Part shown: positions 3,008 through 38,114 of the stretch, piece by piece
How positions within the stretch are numbered: the stretch's first letter is position 1
How the letters are laid out: each line of letters opens with the position of its first letter
NCBI GenBank assembly: GCA_964514545.1
Contig: CAZETR010000032.1
Location: forward strand, 1-57,994
DNA: 57,994 nt
DNA from: an uncultured Gammaproteobacteria bacterium
GTDB lineage: Bacteria > Patescibacteriota > Microgenomatia > CAZETR01
Reading direction: 5' to 3'
Made by a program: the position numbers and the translations under genes
Notes under the pieces: model-generated
The model's database searches: none
The model's input: only the letters and a program-made list of their open reading frames with translations
Told to the model about the DNA's origin: nothing

Positions 3008-4090
3008 GTGGAGCAAGACCCGCGAAAAATTAAGTTTGAAAATACGTCGGAGTTGCCGCCGACGACGAAAAGGTTTTCGGCGACTCGTGAGGCTAAGCCT
3101 GATTCAGAGAGGGGCGGGGAGGCTGACCAAGGGGGAGGGAAGGGATTGAAGCGAAATAAAAAGGTAGAGAGCAATCCCAGGCTGGTGCTGGCGATTCTGG
3201 CGCTGACGGTGGGCGCGACCTTAGTTATTTGGTGGACCAGGAGAATTCCCGAGGCAATTCGTGAGTTATCTAGCCCAAGGATTGTCGAAATTATGGGCGA
3301 TAGCAAAGAGTCTAAATCGAAGATAGCAGAAGAGAGAAGGATTGACTGGGAAAAACTTAAGATGGAGGTGGGATCCCAATTGAAAGCAGCTAAAGGGGAC
3401 TATTCGGTGGATGTTTATGATTTGGCAAGCCGGAAGTCAATTGGAATTGGCGAAAACAGGCCGATGACGGCCGCCTCTCTAATTAAATTGCCGGTATTAA
3501 TTTCTCTGTATCAACAGGGAGAATTCGGAAAGATAAATCCGGATTCAAAATATGTTTTGGAGGAAGCAGATAAAAGACAAGGGTCGGGGAGTATGGCATA
3601 TGCCAAGGCCGGGTCAAGCTATACTTATCGCAAGATGGCGGAACTGATGGGACAGCAAAGTGATAATACGGCCTTTCACGTTGTGACGGGAAGACTAGGC
3701 GGGGAAGCAATTGAAAAAACAATTACACAGGCAGGCTTGCTAAATACCAGCTTTAAGGAAAATGAAACGACGGCGTACGACGTGGCGACACTATTGATTA
3801 AGCTATACAGGGGGGAACTGCTAAATAGAAAGAATTCGGATGAGATTTTGGGGTTTCTGACAAAGACGATTTACGAGGACAGAATCCCAACCGGGGTGCC
3901 GACTGGGGTGAGAGTGGCGCATAAGGTGGGGACCGAGGTTGGGGTGGTGTCGGATGGGGGGATTGTATATGCAAAAAATCCTTACGTGCTGGTAATTATG
4001 AGTAAGGAGGCGAGTTTGGCTGAGGCACAAAAATTGTTGCCGGAGGTAAGTCGAGTGGTCTGGAATTATTTGGGGGATATACCCAAATAA
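3008..4090 (+). CDS. Membrane-anchored class A beta-lactamase-like serine hydrolase
   Basis: SxxK (ASLIK), SDN, HKVG (KTG-like) motifs; N-terminal TM segment. Confidence 0.85.
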   Translation: MEQDPRKIKFENTSELPPTTKRFSATREAKPDSERGGEADQGGGKGLKRNKKVESNPRLVLAILALTVGATLVIWWTRRIPEAIRELSSPRIVEIMGDSKESKSKIAEERRIDWEKLKMEVGSQLKAAKGDYSVDVYDLASRKSIGIGENRPMTAASLIKLPVLISLYQQGEFGKINPDSKYVLEEADKRQGSGSMAYAKAGSSYTYRKMAELMGQQSDNTAFHVVTGRLGGEAIEKTITQAGLLNTSFKENETTAYDVATLLIKLYRGELLNRKNSDEILGFLTKTIYEDRIPTGVPTGVRVAHKVGTEVGVVSDGGIVYAKNPYVLVIMSKEASLAEAQKLLPEVSRVVWNYLGDIPK

Positions 4091-13752: not shown

Positions 13753-16254
13753 ATGAAAGCACTTAGATTACACATAGTTACGAGTAGCGCAAAAAAGACA
13801 ACCAAGGCGAAGTTGGTTGGCCGAGGAAATGGGTTTTTGCCTAAACCACACTTTGTGGCGATGGAAGAGGGAACTGAACTTTCAGGAATAAGAAAAGATG
13901 TATTTTTGGATCGGTATTCGCTGAAAGATATTGACGGCAAGGCTATGGAGGCGTTTCCGGAACAAATGTGGCAGAGAGTTGCCTGGGGCATAGCTCAGAC
14001 TGAAAAGACGGGAGTTCTGAAGAGGGAGTGGGAAGGAAAGTTTTACAAAGCGATGCAGGGATTTAAATTCGTACCAGCGGGACGAATTTTGTCAGGGGCC
14101 GGTACCGGATACGAAGTGACCTTTTACAATTGCTATGTAATTCCATCTCCTAAAGATAGCCGGCATGGAATTATGCAGAACATCGAGCTGACCGTGGAAA
14201 TTCAGGCTCGGGCGGGCGGGGTGGGATTGAACTTGTCGTCCCTTCGGCCCCGGGGAGCAAGAGTCAAGAAAGTAAACGGGACATCTTCAGGTCCGGTTAA
14301 CTGGGCGGCTCTGTATTCGACGGCTAATCACGATGTGATTCAACAAGGGGGATCGAGAAGGGGGGCGCTGATGCTAATGCTAAACGACTGGCATCCGGAT
14401 GTGGAGGAATTTATTACCGTGAAACAGGATTTGACAAAGATTCCCGGGGCGAACCTTTCTGTGTGTATCAGCAAAGCGTTTATGGATGCGGTTGAGACTG
14501 ACGGCGATTGGGATTTGGTCTATCCTGATTTATCCGACCCGGAGTATGACGAGGCTTGGGATGGAGATATAGAGAAGTGGAAAAGTTTGGGAAAACAAGT
14601 AAAAATCCATAGGACTCTTAAGGCTAGATATCTATGGGATCTGATAGCTGAGGCGGCTTGGAAGTCGGCTGAGCCGGGGGCGGTTTTCATCGATAGGTAC
14701 AACGAAATGAGTAACAGTTGGTACTTTGAGAAAATAATCGCGACAAACCCCTGTGGTGAACAGGGATTGGGGGCATGGGGGGTGTGCAATTTGGGCCATG
14801 TCAATCTGTCTCCGTTTGTGAGTCACGGAGTGATGGACTATCAGGGATTGAAGGAGCATGTGGCTATTGCGACTCGGTTTTTGGACAATGTAATTGAGGC
14901 TAATTTCTACTTCGCCAAAGAGAATGAACGGGCACAGAGATTTGGGATTAGGAGGACGGGCTTGGGGACCTTGGGCTTGGCAGACGCGCTAATTAAGATG
15001 GGAATAAGATATGGGAGTGAGGAGTCTTTGAGTGAGATAGACAAGATTTACAAGCTGATCCGCGATACGGCATACGAGACATCTGTAATGCTTGCAAAAG
15101 AAAAGGGGGCGTTTGCCAAGTTTGAAAAAGAGAAGTACTTGCAGGGAAAGTTTATTCGCGAGTTGCCTTCCCTGATAAGGGAAGGAATCGCCAAGCACGG
15201 TATCCGAAATGGAATTTTATTGACCCAGGCGCCGACGGGGACGATTTCTTTACTCGCTGGTGCCAGCAGCGGGATTGAGCCGGTTTATGAATTTACTTAT
15301 CAGAGGCGCGATCGGACAGGGGAACACATTGTGAACCATCCGATCTATCAAGAATGGATTGACAAGCACGCGGGTGAGGTAGCGCCGGAGTACTTTGTGA
15401 GCGCGTCTCAATTGACTCCGGAGGAGCATGTTCGGGTGCAGGCACTAGTTCAAAAATATGTTGACTCTTCGATTAGCAAAACCGTGAATGCGCCAAACTC
15501 TCACACGGTTGAAGATGTAAAAAAGTTGTACCGGATGGCTTATGAGTTGGGGTGCAAGGGAGTGACTTATTTCAGGGATGGTAGCAGAACCGGGGTATTA
15601 TCCAAAGTGGAGGAGAAAAAGACTGAAGAGGTTTCCAGACAGACAATCAAGCCGCGGCCGGTAAAAGTGGAAGGGGCGACATACAGGATCGAGACGCCGT
15701 TGGGAATTGCTTTTATTACTGTAAACCAGGATACGGACGGCAATCCGTTTGAAGTGTTTGTGACGATTGGGAAAGCCGGATCTGAAGTGGCGGCGATGGC
15801 CGAGGCTCTGGGGCGGTTAATATCGACGACGTTAAGATTTGGAAACCATATGCCTGCAAAAGAACGGGCAAAAGAGATAATGGAACAGCTGTCAGGTATT
15901 GGGGGGGGCAGGTCGGTGGGGTTTGGGCCGAATAAAGTAAGGAGTTTGCCGGATGCGGTGGCGAGAGCGATTGGGATGCACTTTGGGTTGATAGGATACC
16001 AAGATAGTCAAATCTCAAATCTCGAATCTCAAATCTCAAATCAGGAGACGCGAGGGAATGGGCATGTGGCAAACGGGGTGGTGAAACAGGAGTTGTTACC
16101 CGATTCGGGAATGAGTGAAGTGGGTACGGAATCTTCGGTCTTGCGCCTTTTCGCAGACGCGCACAAGGATATTTGTCCCAGCTGCGGAGAGGCGTCGTTG
16201 GTACTCGAGGAAGGGTGTAAAAAGTGCTATACGTGCGGACACAGCGAATGTTGA
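13753..16254 (+). CDS. nrdJ: Class II (adenosylcobalamin-dependent) ribonucleotide reductase with C-terminal TSCPD and zinc ribbon
   Basis: PAGRIL, FYNCYV, TNPCGEQ, APTGTIS, DSSISKTVN, KGVTYFRDG, terminal CPSC...CYTC; true start may be 13861. Confidence 0.92.
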   Translation: MKALRLHIVTSSAKKTTKAKLVGRGNGFLPKPHFVAMEEGTELSGIRKDVFLDRYSLKDIDGKAMEAFPEQMWQRVAWGIAQTEKTGVLKREWEGKFYKAMQGFKFVPAGRILSGAGTGYEVTFYNCYVIPSPKDSRHGIMQNIELTVEIQARAGGVGLNLSSLRPRGARVKKVNGTSSGPVNWAALYSTANHDVIQQGGSRRGALMLMLNDWHPDVEEFITVKQDLTKIPGANLSVCISKAFMDAVETDGDWDLVYPDLSDPEYDEAWDGDIEKWKSLGKQVKIHRTLKARYLWDLIAEAAWKSAEPGAVFIDRYNEMSNSWYFEKIIATNPCGEQGLGAWGVCNLGHVNLSPFVSHGVMDYQGLKEHVAIATRFLDNVIEANFYFAKENERAQRFGIRRTGLGTLGLADALIKMGIRYGSEESLSEIDKIYKLIRDTAYETSVMLAKEKGAFAKFEKEKYLQGKFIRELPSLIREGIAKHGIRNGILLTQAPTGTISLLAGASSGIEPVYEFTYQRRDRTGEHIVNHPIYQEWIDKHAGEVAPEYFVSASQLTPEEHVRVQALVQKYVDSSISKTVNAPNSHTVEDVKKLYRMAYELGCKGVTYFRDGSRTGVLSKVEEKKTEEVSRQTIKPRPVKVEGATYRIETPLGIAFITVNQDTDGNPFEVFVTIGKAGSEVAAMAEALGRLISTTLRFGNHMPAKERAKEIMEQLSGIGGGRSVGFGPNKVRSLPDAVARAIGMHFGLIGYQDSQISNLESQISNQETRGNGHVANGVVKQELLPDSGMSEVGTESSVLRLFADAHKDICPSCGEASLVLEEGCKKCYTCGHSEC

Positions 16255-22901: not shown

Positions 22902-22973
22902 TGGCTGCGACAGGACTCGGACCTGTAACCATTGCCTTATGAAGACACCGCTCTACCATTGAGCTACGCAGCC
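22902..22973 (-). tRNA. tRNA with CAU anticodon, probably elongator Met
   Basis: ggctgcg/cgcagcc acceptor (G1:C72), loop ttcataa, T-loop tccgagt. Confidence 0.88.
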
Positions 22974-23062
22974 ATAACGTGACTGGCATATTTTAACGTA
23001 GATTGGGCGAGTTGTCATTCGGCTTTGAATCTGGTATAGTTTTGTGGCTGAAAAGCAAAACA

Positions 23063-23132
23063 CGCGGGGTAGTGTAAAGCCGCACGGAAGGCTCATAATC
23101 TTCCAGTCCTGGTGCGATTCCGGGCCCCGCAA
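23063..23132 (+). tRNA. Atypical initiator-type tRNA-Met(CAU)
   Basis: cgcgggg/ccccgca acceptor with C1xA72 mismatch, loop ctcataa; anticodon stem gaagg/tcttc; T-loop tgcgatt. Confidence 0.75.
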
Positions 23133-27701: not shown

Positions 27702-28745
27702 ATGAAAACATTGTTAGTAATCGATGGGAATGCGGTACTGCATCGGGCTTTTCATGCGATGCCGGAGTGGAGAAATAGAAGCGGGGAGGCAACTAGCGGA
27801 GTGTATGGGTTTTTTTCCATGCTTTTAAAGGCCAGAGAAGATTTGAATCCGGATTATTTAGTCGTGACATTTGATATGCCGGAGCCAAACTTTAGGCATG
27901 CGATGTATGTGGGTTATCAGTCCAATCGCGGGAGAGACGAGCAACTAGATCGGGATATTTGGGAACAGGTGGAGAAACTTAAAGTTGCTTTGGAGAAACT
28001 GGGAGTGCCTGTTTTTGCGGTAGCGGGATATGAGGCGGATGATGTAATAGGAACTGTTGCCCTGCAGGCAACTAGTTCCAAATCCCAAATCCCAAATCCC
28101 AAATCCCAAAAAGTTGATGAAGTAATAATTTTGACAGGGGATCGCGATTTGCTGCAATTGGTGGACGACCGAGTGAAAGTTTACATGCCAATTAAGGGCT
28201 TGTCGGAAACAGTATTACTGGATCGGGATGGAGTAAAGGCAAAAATGGGGGTATGGCCGGAGCAGATAGTTGACTACAAGGCATTGGTGGGTGATGGGAG
28301 TGACGGGTACCCGGGGGTGGCGGGAGTGGGACCTAAAGGAGCTTGCCAACTCATATCACAATTTGAAAACCTAGACAGATTATACGGGGAAATCACAAGC
28401 TCAAAACCACAAATCCCTGCTCGCAATGCTACGCATAGCGTTGCAGGCGGGCCAAATCCCAAATCCCAAATAAAGGACAATCTGAAGGCAAAACTTTTGG
28501 AGGGATATGAGATGGCGAGGATGAGCCAAAAATTGGCAACTATTATTTGTGATGTTCCCTTGACACTGGATTTAGGGAAAGCGGTAATGCCTAGCAAGGA
28601 GAAGTTTGCTCAGTTGTTTGAAGAGGTGAGACATCCGAGCTTAAAAGCGAGGGTGATGGGGGAAGAATTCAAAACTCAAAATTCAAAACTCAAAAGTGAA
28701 AGGCAAAATTCAAAAGTTAGCGAGAATCAGGAACTGTTGTTTTGA
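27702..28745 (+). CDS. Standalone 5'-3' exonuclease (Pol I N-terminal/flap endonuclease)
   Basis: IDGN, GYEADD, TGDRDLLQL, LVGDGSDGYPGVAGVGPK; no polymerase domain. Confidence 0.92.
   Translation: MKTLLVIDGNAVLHRAFHAMPEWRNRSGEATSGVYGFFSMLLKAREDLNPDYLVVTFDMPEPNFRHAMYVGYQSNRGRDEQLDRDIWEQVEKLKVALEKLGVPVFAVAGYEADDVIGTVALQATSSKSQIPNPKSQKVDEVIILTGDRDLLQLVDDRVKVYMPIKGLSETVLLDRDGVKAKMGVWPEQIVDYKALVGDGSDGYPGVAGVGPKGACQLISQFENLDRLYGEITSSKPQIPARNATHSVAGGPNPKSQIKDNLKAKLLEGYEMARMSQKLATIICDVPLTLDLGKAVMPSKEKFAQLFEEVRHPSLKARVMGEEFKTQNSKLKSERQNSKVSENQELLF
28416..28451 (-). repeat. 36-bp family A-related palindrome, in frame in the exonuclease
   Basis: cctgctcgcaatgctacgcatagcgttgcaggcggg; reverse complement runs cccgcc...gcagg; encodes PARNATHSVAGG. 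Confidence 0.75.
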
Positions 28746-28945
28746 CCCTCCGTCGCTTGCCTCAAGCCTTTGGTCCTGATTGAATCGGGAACTGCTTGAA
28801 GAGCGCTTCTGGCGGGTTTCGCACTGTTTTGCAATTTGGTTTAAGATGGTTGTGCTCATGAAAAACCCCACCTTGCGGAGGGGTTTTTCGAAAGAACAAT
28901 TCTTGCGAACTATTCCTACTGATTAACCCTTGCGAGTTGATCAGT
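28745..28945 (-). ncRNA. Candidate structured RNA with three C(GCAA)G hairpins
   Basis: Hairpins 28918-28945, 28893-28916, 28860-28889; G-U pairs work only on the minus strand; consensus promoter immediately upstream; 3' end uncertain. Confidence 0.6.
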
Positions 28946-28951
28946 GAAGGC

Positions 28952-28980
28952 ATAGTACATAAAATCTAAATATATGTCAA
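28952..28980 (-). promoter_or_regulatory. Sigma70 promoter TTGACA-17-TACTAT (TG-extended)
   Basis: -35 at 28980-28975, -10 at 28957-28952; predicted +1 about 28945. Confidence 0.8.
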
Positions 28981-30311
28981 GAGGGAAGTTTAATCAAGCC
29001 ACAAGCCACAAGCCACCCGCCTACGCTGAAGCTTCCACTTTCGCAGCTGCTTCGGCGGACAGGTCGGCGGGCAGGCAAATTCTAAGAACCATAAAGATAG
29101 CTATCGTTCATGACCCCGCACAAACCTCGTCGCTCCCGAGGTCTACGTCCTCGCGTCGCGATGTCGGTAATGCGGGGCAGGTTACTTTAAAGGTAGCACT
29201 AGTGCACGATTATTTAAAGGAGGTGGGGGGGGCGGAGAGGGTACTGATGGTACTAAAGGAAATGTTTCCGAATGCCACGGTTTATACAGCTTATAAATTT
29301 CCTCCCTATTGGGGACAGTTCCGGGACGAACTTCTAAAATGGGATATTCGGGAAAGTTGGGGACGGTGGTTGCCTTTTCTACCTAAATTTATTAGCTATT
29401 ACACGATATTGTCCCCGCTTTTTTTCTCTAGAATGGATCTATCAGAATATGATCTGGTGATTGTTTCGGCGACGGGGGGGTACTTTCCAAACGGGGTAAA
29501 AATCGGGGAGAAAACAGGACTACTGACTTATTGCCATACTCCTCCACGGTTTTTGTACGGCTATCCGACGGCAACAGTCGAACGGAATAAATGGTATTGG
29601 AAGCCGATATCGGCTGTGGCAAATTTGATTTTGAGACAGGTTGATTTTCGATTTGCGCAAAGGCCACATTTGTTTATTGCCAATTCAAAAAATGTGGCAA
29701 GGAGGATTTGGAAGTTTTATAGAAGAGAATCAGTGGTGGTATATCCACCAATACAAATCCCAAATCAACTAATAAAAAAGAATCCTAAACTGGATTACTA
29801 TTTAATGGTTTCTAGGATTGTGGGGGGGAAGAATATCGAGATGGTGGCAGAGGCGGCGGAAAAAGGCGGATTTAAATTGATGATTGCCGGAAGACCAATT
29901 GGCCGAAGCGGGCGGGAGATTTTAAACAAGATCAGTAACAGTAAAAGCAAGATGGTCAAGTATTTGGGAGAGGTGAGTGATGAGGAAAGAGGTAGGCTAT
30001 TTGCTGGAGCCAGGGCCTTTTTGGCGATGGAGAGTGACGCGGATTTTGGAATTACGGCAGTTGAACCGCAAATATATGGAACACCGGTAATTGCATACCG
30101 GGGAGGGGGATATTTGGAGACAGTGGTCGAAGGAAAGACGGGAATTTTTGTTGATAGGTTGGATGTTGACGGGGTTATAGAGGCTGTCGAGAAATTTGAA
30201 AAAACAGAATTTAACAGCATGGTTATCAGGAATAATGCTGAGAAGTTTTCTAAAGAGACTTTTAAGGAGCAGATGATAGAATTGATAGCGAAGTATGCCG
30301 GAATTACCTGA
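28974..30311 (+). CDS. GT4-family glycosyltransferase with repeat-derived N-terminal extension
   Basis: KVALVHDYL...GGAERV, YCHTPPRFL, DFGITAVE; TAAAAT at 28960-28965 supports this start. Confidence 0.9.
   Translation: MSRGKFNQATSHKPPAYAEASTFAAASADRSAGRQILRTIKIAIVHDPAQTSSLPRSTSSRRDVGNAGQVTLKVALVHDYLKEVGGAERVLMVLKEMFPNATVYTAYKFPPYWGQFRDELLKWDIRESWGRWLPFLPKFISYYTILSPLFFSRMDLSEYDLVIVSATGGYFPNGVKIGEKTGLLTYCHTPPRFLYGYPTATVERNKWYWKPISAVANLILRQVDFRFAQRPHLFIANSKNVARRIWKFYRRESVVVYPPIQIPNQLIKKNPKLDYYLMVSRIVGGKNIEMVAEAAEKGGFKLMIAGRPIGRSGREILNKISNSKSKMVKYLGEVSDEERGRLFAGARAFLAMESDADFGITAVEPQIYGTPVIAYRGGGYLETVVEGKTGIFVDRLDVDGVIEAVEKFEKTEFNSMVIRNNAEKFSKETFKEQMIELIAKYAGIT
29016..29075 (+). repeat. Nested family A elements (a 30-bp unit inside a 30-bp unit)
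   Basis: Outer 29016-29033 + 29064-29075 = cccgcctacgctgaagcttcggcgggcagg; inner 29034-29063 = tccactttcgcagctgcttcggcggacagg. Confidence 0.8.
29114..29181 (+). repeat. 68-bp hairpin element with family A-like ends
   Basis: ccccgca...tgcgggg followed by cagg. Confidence 0.6.
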
Positions 30312-31182
30312 GATTGAAACCGTCCGGTTGCAACTCGCGAAAGTGTTGCCGGGTTTGGAGGTCGAGGGGCTTGACGTGTTGAAGGAAAAGAGTGTGCAGG
30401 GAGATTGGAGCTTGGCGAAAGGAAAGAAGGTCGAGGAGGTATTGAGAAAGGGGAAAATGTTACAGATAAATTTGTCTGGGGAAATTTCAGTGGCGATTCA
30501 TTTTAAGATGACCGGTCAATTGGTGTTCGAACCAATTGGCAAGCCACAAATCCCAAGCCACAAATCCCAAATTGGCCGGATTGTAGGTGGGCATCCGACG
30601 GAGGATTTCTTCGGGCCCTTGCCGAGCAAACACACGCGGGCGGTTTTTAACTTTACCGGTGGATCAAAAATGTATTTTAACGATCAGCGGATGTTTGGGT
30701 GGATAAAAATAGGAATGAGATTGGAGATTGCGAAAATGAAGTTCTTGCAGGAGCTGGGGCCGGAGCCATTCGAGTTGACGAGTGAGGAGTTTATAAAGCT
30801 AATAGAGCGATCAAAAAGGCCAATTAAATTGGTGCTGATGGACCAGACGATAATTTCTGGAGTGGGAAATATTTATGCTAACGACGCTTTGTGGGAGGCA
30901 AGAGTCGACCCAAGGCGAGGGGCAAATACGCTCACGGAAAAACAATATAAAGATTTATACAAGGGCGTGATAGATGTGCTACGGGAAGGAATTAAGTATG
31001 GGGGAGCGACAGCGGCGGATGCTAAATATATAGATCTTCACGGCATGGGTGGGCATTATCAAGATCATTTTCGGGTTTATGACAGAGAGGGACAACCCTG
31101 CTTGCGAGAGGATCGAGGAATTGTTCACAAGTTTGTCCTAGGAGGGAGAGGAACGTATTTTTGCCCGGAGTGCCAGAGATAA
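30295..31182 (+). CDS. mutM: Formamidopyrimidine-DNA glycosylase
   Basis: MPELPEIE, HFKMTG, DQRMFG, GVGNIYANDAL, C-terminal finger FCPECQ. Confidence 0.95.
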   Translation: MPELPEIETVRLQLAKVLPGLEVEGLDVLKEKSVQGDWSLAKGKKVEEVLRKGKMLQINLSGEISVAIHFKMTGQLVFEPIGKPQIPSHKSQIGRIVGGHPTEDFFGPLPSKHTRAVFNFTGGSKMYFNDQRMFGWIKIGMRLEIAKMKFLQELGPEPFELTSEEFIKLIERSKRPIKLVLMDQTIISGVGNIYANDALWEARVDPRRGANTLTEKQYKDLYKGVIDVLREGIKYGGATAADAKYIDLHGMGGHYQDHFRVYDREGQPCLREDRGIVHKFVLGGRGTYFCPECQR

Positions 31183-33283: not shown

Positions 33284-34360
33284 ATGGTAATTAAGGCTGT
33301 TAATCTACACAACTTTAGAAGTTATAACAGGGTGGAATTTGAATTTGACCCGGAGACGACTGTCGTAATCGGACCGAATGGAAGCGGGAAGACAAACATG
33401 CTTGAGGCGATCTATATGATAGCGACGGGAAAGAGCTTTCGGGCGGAGATGGAGGCGGAAGTAATTCGATATGGGGAGGGATTTGGGAGAATAGAGGCGG
33501 AAATCCGAATCAAGCCTCAAATCACAAGCCCCAAGTCACAAATTAAACGACTGGAAATTCTGGTGAGCGACGGTAGTCAGGAATTTCCCAGGAAGAGGTT
33601 TTTAGTTAACGGTGTTTCCAGGAGAATGATTGACTTTGTGGGAAATTTAAGAGCTGTATTGTTTGGGCCGTGGGATATGGAACTACTGGACGGGAGTCCC
33701 GGGAAAAGAAGGAGGTATCTGGATATGGTTTTGTCGCAGGTGGACCGAGAGTACGGGAGGTCGCTAATTTCCTATGAAAAAGGAATCAGACAGAGAAATA
33801 AGTTGCTGGAAAGTATTCGAGAAGGGTTTGCCAGTCGAACACAGCTTTCGTTTTGGGATAAGCTGGTAATCCGCAACGGAAATTATATTACAGACAAGAG
33901 GGCGGAGTTTATTGATTTTCTTGTTAACCGAGTTGGTCAGCCAATTGAACTGGGAATGGAATATGATAAAAGTGAGATTTCGGAGGCGAGATTGGCCCAG
34001 TACGAAAATGAAGAAGTAGCGGCCGCGGTGACACTAGTGGGACCGCACCGTGACGACTTCGTCGTCGCGCAAGCCACAAATCTCAAATCTCAAGCCACAA
34101 AAGACGTGGCGAAATTTGGATCTAGGGGGGAACAGAGAATGGCGGTGTTGTGGTTAAAGATGGGGGAGCTGGACTTTATAGAGAGCAAGACCGGAGAAAG
34201 ACCGCTGTTGCTGTTGGATGATATTTTTTCTGAGCTAGATCAAAAACACAGGATGGTCGTTTGTGGGATGGTGGGGAGCCAGCAGACGATAATCACCGCA
34301 GCGGATGAACACCTGGTTTTAGGGGTGGGGGGGAAAGTTTTGCGGTTGGGCGTAGAGTGA
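33284..34360 (+). CDS. recF: DNA replication and repair protein RecF
   Basis: NFRSY, GPNGSGKTN, GPHRDD, SRGEQR, LLLDDIFSELD. Confidence 0.95.
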   Translation: MVIKAVNLHNFRSYNRVEFEFDPETTVVIGPNGSGKTNMLEAIYMIATGKSFRAEMEAEVIRYGEGFGRIEAEIRIKPQITSPKSQIKRLEILVSDGSQEFPRKRFLVNGVSRRMIDFVGNLRAVLFGPWDMELLDGSPGKRRRYLDMVLSQVDREYGRSLISYEKGIRQRNKLLESIREGFASRTQLSFWDKLVIRNGNYITDKRAEFIDFLVNRVGQPIELGMEYDKSEISEARLAQYENEEVAAAVTLVGPHRDDFVVAQATNLKSQATKDVAKFGSRGEQRMAVLWLKMGELDFIESKTGERPLLLLDDIFSELDQKHRMVVCGMVGSQQTIITAADEHLVLGVGGKVLRLGVE

Positions 34361-36362: not shown

Positions 36363-38114
36363 ATGCTTTTTAGGAGGTTTGCAGAATTTCTGGAAAAATT
36401 GGAGGGGATGAGTTCGAGGAATGAGATGACTGTGGTGTTGGCAGAATTATTAAAGGAATTGAGTGCAGAGGAAGCTGACAAAGCGGTCTATCTGGCATTG
36501 GGATATTTGGCACCGCCGTATGCGGGACTCGAGATTGGGCTGGCCGAGAAGATGATGGCAAGGGTTGTGGCGCGTGCATTCGGGGTTACGGAGATAGAAG
36601 CATGGAGGGAATATAAGAAGGCCGGAGATTGGGGAAGTGCTACGCTTCAAATCCCAAATCCCAAATCCCAAATCCCAAAGAAACTGACGATAGGCGATGT
36701 CTATGAGGAGTTGGTGCGGATTGCGAAGGAGGGTGGTGAGGGGAGCCAGGAGAGAAAGGTAGAGATGCTGGCGAACTTGCTAAAGGAGGTGGGGGACGGG
36801 AGAAGTGCTAAGTACTTGGCCAGGATACCGATTGGAAGGCTAAGATTGGGGTTTTCGGACGTGACAATTCTCGACGCATTGTCGGTCATGAAGTCGGGTG
36901 ATAAATCACTTCGGAAGGAGATAGAGAGGGCATTTAACGTGATGGTTGACATCGGAAGGATTGCAAAAGTATTTAAAAAGGATCCAAGAGAGATCGCGAA
37001 AATACAATCAGAGCCCGGGATACCTATACGTCCTGCCTTGGCGGAAAGAATTCCGACGGCCGAGAAAATTATTGAAAAACTGGGTGAATGTGTGGTTGAG
37101 CCAAAATACGACGGAGTTCGTGTGCAGGTGCATATTACCACCCAAGGAGAAGTATCAATTTTTAGCAGAAACTTGGAAAGTACGACCGCAATGTTTCCGG
37201 ATTTGGTGTTAGCCGCCAAGAAAGAGCTTCCGAGAGGAGTAGTTTTTGACGGGGAGGCAATTGCGTACGATCCAAAAACAAACAAATTTTTGCCTTTTCA
37301 GGAGACGTCGCAGAGAAAAAGAAAACACGATATTGAGGAGAAGGCTCGCGAGTTGCCTTTGCGGGTATTTTTGTTTGACGTACTCTACGCAAACGGCCAT
37401 AGCCATCTGAATTCTTCGTATCGGGAGCGAAGGGAGGTTTTGGAAAGGATGGTAAAAGATAAAGGAACTTTTATCAAGGCGAAGTATCTGGCTGTGAAAA
37501 ATGCCCAGGAGATAAGGGCCGAATTTAGGGAATCAATAAAAGCAGGTTTGGAGGGGTTGATGGTGAAAAAGCCGGACTCGGTATATCAGGCGGGGGGAAG
37601 AAACTTTAATTGGGTGAAGTTTAAAAAAAATACTGAGACAGAAAGCGGAAAATCCAGGCTAATTGATACCTTGGATTGTGTGGTGATGGGAATATATCGA
37701 GGACGGGGAAAGAGAGTAGGGTTTGGGGTGGGAGCTTTCCTGGTCGGAGTGCTAGGCGCAAATAAAAAATTAAATATCAAAGACCAAAAATCTACCAGAA
37801 TTTTTACTATTGCGAAGATTGGAACCGGGCTGACCGATGATAAATGGCGGGAAATGGAAAGGAGGGGCCGAGAGCTGTTGGTACAAGAGAAACCTCCAGA
37901 GTACGACGTCGACAAAAATTTAAGCCCCGATGTATGGATGAGGCCTAAACTAGTGGTTGAAATATTGGCGGATGAGATAACTCGAAGCCCGATTCATTCG
38001 GCCGGATTGGCCTTACGATTTCCCAGACTTATCAGATTTCGAGACGATAAAAATTATCTGGATGCGACGACGCTTACAGAAGTTGAGAAACTATTTAAAT
38101 TGCAGGGCAGGTAA
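36363..38114 (+). CDS. ATP-dependent DNA ligase (DBD + adenylation + OB)
   Basis: EPKYDGVRVQVH, FDGE, FDVLY, EGLMVK, WVKFK, LRFPR. Confidence 0.95.
   Translation: MLFRRFAEFLEKLEGMSSRNEMTVVLAELLKELSAEEADKAVYLALGYLAPPYAGLEIGLAEKMMARVVARAFGVTEIEAWREYKKAGDWGSATLQIPNPKSQIPKKLTIGDVYEELVRIAKEGGEGSQERKVEMLANLLKEVGDGRSAKYLARIPIGRLRLGFSDVTILDALSVMKSGDKSLRKEIERAFNVMVDIGRIAKVFKKDPREIAKIQSEPGIPIRPALAERIPTAEKIIEKLGECVVEPKYDGVRVQVHITTQGEVSIFSRNLESTTAMFPDLVLAAKKELPRGVVFDGEAIAYDPKTNKFLPFQETSQRKRKHDIEEKARELPLRVFLFDVLYANGHSHLNSSYRERREVLERMVKDKGTFIKAKYLAVKNAQEIRAEFRESIKAGLEGLMVKKPDSVYQAGGRNFNWVKFKKNTETESGKSRLIDTLDCVVMGIYRGRGKRVGFGVGAFLVGVLGANKKLNIKDQKSTRIFTIAKIGTGLTDDKWREMERRGRELLVQEKPPEYDVDKNLSPDVWMRPKLVVEILADEITRSPIHSAGLALRFPRLIRFRDDKNYLDATTLTEVEKLFKLQGR

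Follow-up and report, generated by a model that had tools for sequence, protein, structure and literature searches.

An intergenic segment of the minus strand of the window (the whole stretch of 57,994 nucleotides that was analysed, from an uncultivated Amesbacteria-related member of the Microgenomates) probably encodes a real, independently transcribed and structured small RNA (sRNA), a reading to which we give a probability of about 0.6. The segment contains its own near-consensus promoter followed by three consecutive stem-loops, the last of which has the features of an intrinsic terminator. The same module is found, at the syntenic position between the genes of a 5′-3′ exonuclease and of a GT4 glycosyltransferase and on the antisense strand, in four to five related lineages of Microgenomates. 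It constitutes a new small-RNA family with a narrow distribution among these members of the Candidate Phyla Radiation (CPR). Transcription of the RNA, the position of its 5′ and 3′ ends and its mode of action are predictions made from the sequence and its conservation.

The promoter proposed in the first-pass annotation is present on the minus strand. Its −35 box, TTGACA, was located at positions 28975-28980 both by direct reading and by a promoter scan, and is followed after a spacer of 17 nt by the −10 box, TACTAT, at positions 28952-28957. A discriminator of 6 nt separates the TACTAT hexamer from A28945, the predicted +1, which coincides, as had been claimed, with the first base of hairpin 1 (HP1). 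The sRNA promoter scores 10/12 in the promoter scan, and on both strands of the whole 58-kb window only 10 sites reach a score of at least 10/12. Two of these 10 sites drive tRNA-Met genes, which supports the existence of a promoter type that serves stable-RNA genes in this organism; the tRNA-Met genes are divergent, and the promoter of the sRNA is as good as theirs. A promoter of its own lies directly upstream of the structured region in the relatives as well, scoring 11/12 in L074, 10/12 in L157 and 9/12 in L076. The TTGAC[AT] −35 element is found in the four lineages, the spacing in the three relatives is identical to that of the window, and the overall geometry, TTGAC[AT]-17-TA[CT][AT][CT]T-6-ACUG, is invariant. 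The TG dinucleotide that had been read as a further promoter element must be discarded. It directly abuts the −10 hexamer, out of the TGn register, and is not conserved in the relatives; the promoter scan detected no extended −10 (TGn, with TG at −15/−14) in the sRNA promoter of the window or in that of any relative.

HP1 (28918-28945, minus strand) has the sequence ACUGAUCAACUC-GCAA-GGGUUAAUCAGU and forms a stem of 12 bp that contains a single C·A mismatch. The first base of the hairpin is the predicted +1; the basal ACUG/CAGU segment of the stem is invariant, and the upper part varies with compensation. Hairpin 2 (HP2; 28892-28917, minus strand), AGGAAUAGUUC-GCAA-GAAUUGUUCUU, has a stem of 11 bp that includes three G·U pairs, and its C(GCAA)G cap is invariant in all four lineages. 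Hairpin 3 (HP3; 28860-28889, minus strand), GAAAAACCCCUCC-GCAA-GGUGGGGUUUUUC, is the intrinsic terminator. The three adjacent GCAA-capped stems recognized in the first-pass annotation are all present between positions 28945 and 28860, and they were recovered as the MFE fold, which consists of exactly HP1, HP2 and HP3. The energy of this fold, −41.8 kcal/mol, compares with −16.9 ± 2.9 kcal/mol for shuffled sequences (z = −8.67), none of 200 shuffles being as good. About 78% of the nucleotides of the RNA are paired, the only exposed bases being those of the three GNRA tetraloops and of a linker of 2-3 nt. The plus strand folds at −30.2 kcal/mol and without HP2, and this poorer fold agrees with the earlier argument that the G-U pairs are valid on the minus strand only. 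HP3 folds equally well on the plus strand. Perfect GCAA-capped stems of at least 5 bp number six on both strands of the window, compared with 2.9 ± 1.4 in shuffled sequences, and two of the six are located at this locus.

The core of HP3, CCCCUCC-GCAA-GGUGGGG, has an A-tract on its 5′ side and is followed by a run of five U residues (28865-28861), and it was scored as an intrinsic terminator of the minus strand. A GC stem followed by U5 was scored as a terminator in L074 and L157 as well, and the corresponding stem of L076, with U4 only, falls below the threshold of the tool. With HP3 acting as a Rho-independent terminator, the predicted RNA comprises just the three hairpins, about 85 nt, from 28945 to approximately 28861. 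Hence, of the earlier description of an RNA beginning with three hairpins, the hairpins stand and the word beginning does not, since the third of them is the terminator and the transcript would end there. The A-tract located 5′ of HP3 means that the hairpin reads as a plus-strand terminator as well, placed after the exonuclease gene. Within the terminator stem, a CCUCC sequence resembling an anti-Shine-Dalgarno element faces a GGUGG sequence resembling a Shine-Dalgarno element.

The position of the terminator bears directly on the alternative in which HP1 to HP3 would be the structured leader of a small protein. As the first-pass annotation had indicated, there is an ATG at position 28859, immediately past HP3, and it opens an ORF of 49 amino acids (MSTTILNQ...; 28710-28859, minus strand) antisense to the 3′ end of the exonuclease gene, ending at 28710 and thus overlapping the exonuclease stop at 28745; the GGUGG of the stem could moreover be taken for a ribosome-binding sequence. 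Nevertheless, the ATG lies beyond the U-run of the terminator, and much of the ORF coincides with an array of heptamer repeats and with the strand opposite the 3′ end of the exonuclease gene. No homologue of the peptide was found among 5.8 billion proteins, and neither an ATG nor an ORF occurs at the corresponding position in L074, L157 and L076, the relatives for which the complete sequence is available. In L074 the exonuclease stop is only 4 nt away from the terminator, leaving no space for an ORF. We judge the ORF to be non-coding, and the leader reading is effectively refuted.

Homologues of the module occupy the syntenic site in L074, L076, L157-159 and L160, the last one represented by the terminator only, at the end of a contig. 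A covariance model was trained on the sequences of the window, L074 and L157. With it L076, left out of its construction, was recovered with an E value of 1e-7, and the L160 fragment with one of 9e-7. The model detected no further members in about 0.6 Mb, and a second model detected none in 0.77 Mb of other loci. In the family alignment 96.5% of the cells are standard pairs, compared with 37-57% when the partners are slid by 1-3 columns, and in 14 of the 34 pairs both partners have changed, a value reached by none of 500 shuffles; these figures come from four full-length sequences and one fragment, in a single alignment fitted to the model, and with so few sequences the covariation statistics are weak. 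RNAalifold, applied to a structure-blind MAFFT alignment, returned HP1, HP2 and HP3 again, 12 of the pairs being compensated. Fifteen cells of the family alignment are G·U or U·G. On the opposite strand each of them would become an A·C mismatch, which indicates that it is the minus-strand RNA that is under selection. The loop is GCAA in 11 of 13 cases, and the two remaining loops, GUAA and UUCC, both belong to L076. Conservation extends, in summary, to the promoter, the hairpins and the loops, which the relatives keep with compensatory changes.

The pattern of conservation within HP1 could also be considered from the perspective of the DNA, with its ACTG...CAGT inverted repeat, which overlaps the −35 element of a putative glycosyltransferase promoter, being the operator of a dimeric regulator. 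Invariant ACTG/CAGT ends surrounding a variable centre would be expected of such a site, as would its fixed position relative to the plus-strand promoter. However, complementarity is maintained along the full 12-bp arms and not in the half-sites alone, it includes G·U pairs, which are mismatched in DNA, and HP2 behaves alike without overlapping any promoter. We consider an operator very improbable.

Conservation is not uniform along the sRNA. HP1 and HP2 are approximately 60-65% identical between lineages, and the linker and terminator are 91-100% identical among four lineages but wholly different in L076; an exact terminator match of 22 nt is shared by L074, L157-159 and L160. A model based exclusively on the shape of the RNA does not account for this contrast, which hints that the terminator stem is constrained beyond its pairing and might have a sequence-specific role.

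When the whole window was searched against Rfam 15 at the gathering thresholds, only six tRNAs reached them. A permissive search (E ≤ 10) of positions 28600-29250 reached no family either, the best matches being BTnc231, with 22.2 bits for a threshold of 80.4, and RNAI, with 19.6 bits for a threshold of 47. The absence of any Rfam family at threshold, together with the conservation of promoter, hairpins and loops in the relatives, supports the earlier proposal of a novel sRNA. Beyond the Rfam search, SRP, 6S, tmRNA, tracrRNA, omega and retron RNAs were set apart by eye from established knowledge: to our knowledge, none of them is built of perfect short helices without internal loops, and no gene associated with any of them was seen by eye near the locus. 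The sRNA is single-copy in the window and sequencing depth over it is flat at 14.4, compared with 80-130 over the flanking repeats; on these grounds an interspersed repeat, a MITE or a REP element was rejected.

The distribution of the family was surveyed through its gene neighbours as well. A scan of genome contigs with the exonuclease protein yielded only distant phyla (35-42% identity), none of them with the RNA. A scan of metagenome contigs with an exonuclease alignment yielded 80 loci, the Amesbacteria-like ones among them (45-60% identity) having no module within 2.5 kb. One locus, P0005, has a gap of 181 nt, the right size for the module. No match was obtained in plasmids and phages (blastn) or, with the exact terminator pattern, in viral contigs. 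The locus was matched in two DNA metagenome runs and in no RNA run. Literature searches returned no description of such an RNA, or of regulatory RNAs in CPR/Patescibacteria.

The upstream neighbour of the module is the plus-strand gene of a 5′-3′ exonuclease (PF02739 + PF01367; 27702-28745), and the divergent neighbour is that of the GT4 glycosyltransferase (28974-30311, plus strand). Their best named homologues, with 50-65% identity for the exonuclease and up to 75% for the glycosyltransferase, belong to Candidatus Amesbacteria and Microgenomates. The glycosyltransferase carries an N-terminal extension of 70 amino acids that begins inside the sRNA promoter, the −35 box of the sRNA being, on the plus strand, codons 1-3 of the gene (ATG TCA AGA). 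Its ATG abuts the sRNA −35 in the window, L074 and L157, where the proteins start MSRGKF, MSMGKSK and MESRGKF, respectively, while all other homologues start MKVALVHDY. A plus-strand promoter-like site, TTGATC-17-TAAAAT (28937-28965), is interleaved with the sRNA promoter and ends 8 nt before the ATG at 28974, at which it would start a leaderless, or nearly leaderless, glycosyltransferase mRNA. L157 and L076 have a promoter-like site at nearly the same offset, with its −35 beginning 8-9 nt inside the sRNA, and in L074 only a weaker candidate could be read by hand. Judging from their geometry, the two interleaved promoters could not be occupied simultaneously.

The coding regions of the exonuclease and the glycosyltransferase overlap in L075, L161, L162 and L165 and abut each other directly in L164; more distant Amesbacteria loci are devoid of the module. 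Since the gene pair overlaps in sister lineages, the module is an insertion that split an overlapping pair. An NJ tree of the exonuclease, which carries no support values, groups the sRNA-bearing loci in one clade, with L075, which has no module, nested inside; the L075 lineage probably lost it. By the insertion the exonuclease gains a terminator and the glycosyltransferase a new 5′ end. The locus exemplifies how a small cassette can split overlapping genes, supplying a terminator to one of them and a promoter and start codon to the other.

This organization brings in the main alternative to a functional RNA, an insulator module, in which the arrangement of the DNA, a bidirectional terminator closing the exonuclease transcript plus a bidirectional promoter driving the glycosyltransferase, would be what is selected, and the minus-strand RNA a short divergent by-product, halted immediately by the terminator and with no function in trans. 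In a variant of it, the strong sRNA promoter may merely compete with the interleaved promoter of the glycosyltransferase. Several features fit such a module: it splits a gene pair that previously overlapped, HP3 would terminate on both strands, plus-strand promoter-like sites recur at almost equal offsets in L157, L076 and the window, the start codon of the glycosyltransferase lies within the sRNA promoter in three lineages, and the terminator is the most conserved part. A by-product, however, would not be expected to retain, in four lineages, helices of 11-12 bp by means of compensatory changes, G·U pairs that form on the minus strand only and GNRA caps. Moreover, the minus-strand promoter surpasses the plus-strand one both in conservation and in closeness to the consensus (9-11/12). 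On balance, a pure insulator seems to us rather unlikely, although it deserves more weight than the other alternatives.

The sRNA could alternatively act in cis, as an antisense RNA against transcripts reading through from the exonuclease into the glycosyltransferase gene, which would contain its exact complement, pairing with them in the manner of RNAI or CopA and leading to their cleavage or to a block of expression. The layout of three stem-loops from promoter to terminator and the weak Rfam match to RNAI (19.6 bits) point in this direction, and in L074 the module fills the entire intergenic space, so that any read-through transcript would be antisense to the sRNA. In a GNRA tetraloop a sheared G·A pair closes the loop, and loops of this kind, of only 4 nt, are unsuited to loop-loop kissing. 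In addition, the plus strand would meet a terminator before the body of the sRNA and a promoter-like site after it, and a transcript overlapping the sRNA may be almost absent; plasmids and phages, finally, yielded no relative. We regard antisense action in cis as improbable, less so than an operator.

Returning to an sRNA with a function of its own, we propose the following model. A small module would have been inserted in the ancestor of a small clade, between exonuclease and glycosyltransferase genes that formerly overlapped. This module would combine two hairpins with a bidirectional terminator on one side and a divergent pair of promoters on the other, and would, besides producing the sRNA, end the exonuclease transcript and provide the glycosyltransferase with a promoter and a start codon. 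RNA polymerase would start at A28945 from the near-consensus sigma-70-type promoter, and the 5′ hairpin, HP1, would form immediately and, as is general for 5′-terminal stem-loops, would shield the 5′ end. Polymerase would then transcribe the two stable GNRA-capped hairpins and stop at HP3, near position 28861. The product would be a rigid RNA exposing GNRA loops, which may serve as a ligand, scaffold or titrating agent for a protein, or dock through its tetraloops onto a larger RNA; the first-pass annotation had likewise conjectured protein-docking loops.

Regarding the mode of action, duplex energies between the sRNA and 36 translation-start regions of the 58-kb window were the same as those of shuffled RNA, and indicated no base-pairing target, the calculation being made with a crude tool that ignores intramolecular structure. 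With about 78% of the bases in helices and only GNRA loops and the linker exposed, action through the folded shape, by protein binding or titration or by tetraloop docking, is favoured over base pairing. We put this forward tentatively, as a possibility with the odds still somewhat against it. A more specific version, with correspondingly lower chances, is that of a dedicated ribonucleoprotein or docking RNA of this CPR lineage, whose three C(GCAA)G-type loops would be presented by rigid helices, possibly stacked coaxially, to a specific protein that they bind or to a large RNA, for instance the ribosome, on which they dock. If it were true, this RNA would count among the earliest trans-acting sRNAs with a defined function in the CPR. 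A related reading would see terminator, sRNA and divergent promoters as a transferable 'operon-splitting' cassette. The genomes of CPR/Patescibacteria are tiny. A compact, conserved and covarying RNA gene provides a concrete candidate from the CPR for experiments; with so narrow a family and a role that is only hypothetical, the immediate impact is modest.

The locus shares features with several known systems and is equal to none of them. Like ColE1-type RNAI (RF00106), of about 90-100 nt, the sRNA would have a promoter and a terminator of its own and consist of three consecutive stem-loops, with a 5′ hairpin at +1. It differs in that it is chromosomal with no plasmid relative, in its score of 19.6 bits for a gathering threshold of 47, and in its GNRA loops of 4 nt where RNAI has kissing loops of 6-7 nt; its antisense target, moreover, is only hypothetical. 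With Bacteroides BTnc231 (RF04180), the best Rfam match, it has in common being an intergenic sRNA with a terminator made of A-tract, GC stem and U-tract. BTnc231, however, belongs to an unrelated phylum, and the alignment with it (22.2 bits, threshold 80.4) is based only on the terminator and on the A/U-rich sequence proximal to the promoter. By analogy with CsrB/RsmZ and with 6S RNA, a mimic of shape, a highly structured RNA that repeats a loop motif could plausibly bind a protein rather than an mRNA. Unlike CsrB/RsmZ, its loops are only three and are GCAA (GUAA and UUCC in L076) instead of GGA, and the multiple GGA loop motifs of a CsrB/Rsm-type sponge are absent; with 85 nt, it is also far smaller than 6S RNA. 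At the DNA level, HP3, flanked by an A-tract and a U-tract between transcripts that would arrive convergently, resembles the bidirectional intrinsic terminators, and the two promoters interleaved within about 45 bp resemble bidirectional or divergent sigma-70 promoters. In contrast to plain bidirectional terminators and promoters, those described here bracket a conserved and covarying RNA, and the unit they form is one inserted cassette confined to a single clade.

The spacer between the stop codon of the 5′-3′ exonuclease gene and the terminator of the sRNA, the predicted minus-strand RNA of about 85 nt, measures 115 nt in the window (28746–28860) versus only 0–9 nt in relatives. It holds degenerate copies of the final codons of the exonuclease, GAATCGGGAACTG at 28782 matching GAATCAGGAACTG at 28724, and TGCTTGAAGAG at 28793 matching TGTTTGAAGAG at 28615. 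The spacer, which contains the 49-aa ORF, probably arose by duplication of the gene's end.

On the other side of the sRNA, the 5′ end of the glycosyltransferase gene is present in two copies, 29069–29114 and 29175–29213, separated by 106 nt. The degenerate copy, ATA AAG ATA GCT ATC GTT CAT GAC (IKIAIVHD), is located upstream of the functional LKVALVHDY, and both copies flank a GC-rich inverted repeat, CCCCGCA...TGCGGGG (29114–29177). The arrangement has the look of an insertion whose flanking duplication is long and has since diverged. L157, a related Microgenomates lineage carrying the sRNA at the syntenic site, has two copies of GCAAGGTGGGGTTTTTC, the 17 nt that make up the 3′ half of the sRNA terminator (3960–4070, minus strand); between them lies a GC-rich insert of about 80 nt, just downstream of the sRNA. 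This is a second insertion bordered by a long duplication, in another lineage but at the same locus. Upstream of the exonuclease, L157 (1–2940) encodes an FtsH homologue of 1078 aa with intein and LAGLIDADG domains; the FtsH of the window (651 aa) is devoid of both.

Three stretches flanking the sRNA, each of some 55–60 nt (28665–28718, 29014–29076 and 29126–29180), have a contig depth 6–9 times that of their surroundings, with counterparts of about 85–90% identity in many other short contigs from the same metagenomes. They appear to be short interspersed repeats, community-wide, and two of the three fall within the 70 aa by which the glycosyltransferase ORF is extended at its N-terminus.

The whole window has a very strong GC skew, with positive values in all 2-kb bins (+0.16 to +0.43), including those over 5.6–12.4 kb, where the long ORFs lie on the minus strand; the skew does not switch anywhere in the 58 kb. 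Two divergent tRNA-Met genes share a 90-nt spacer (22973–23063) in which each strand carries a promoter-like site, TTGTCA-17-TATAGT on one and ATGACA-17-TAAAAT on the other, and the two sites overlap; the sRNA locus has the same layout of interleaved divergent promoters.

Short tandem arrays with a 7-nt period occur by the dozen across the window, among others at 736–765, 2949–2980, 16008–16042, 28078–28110, 28452–28471, 28666–28715, 28995–29016, 30540–30570, 33511–33541 and 36648–36679, with units that include CAAATCC/AAATCCC, CAAGCCA, AATTCAA and AAAGTCA. Many are intragenic and translated as odd low-complexity inserts, such as SSKSQIPNPKSQ in the exonuclease, whose C-terminal tail KTQNSKLKSERQNSKV is another stretch of this origin, and GKPQIPSHKSQIG in Fpg; comparable low-complexity inserts are present in glycosyltransferase homologues. 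The arrays are similar to the heptanucleotide repeats (STRR) of cyanobacteria.
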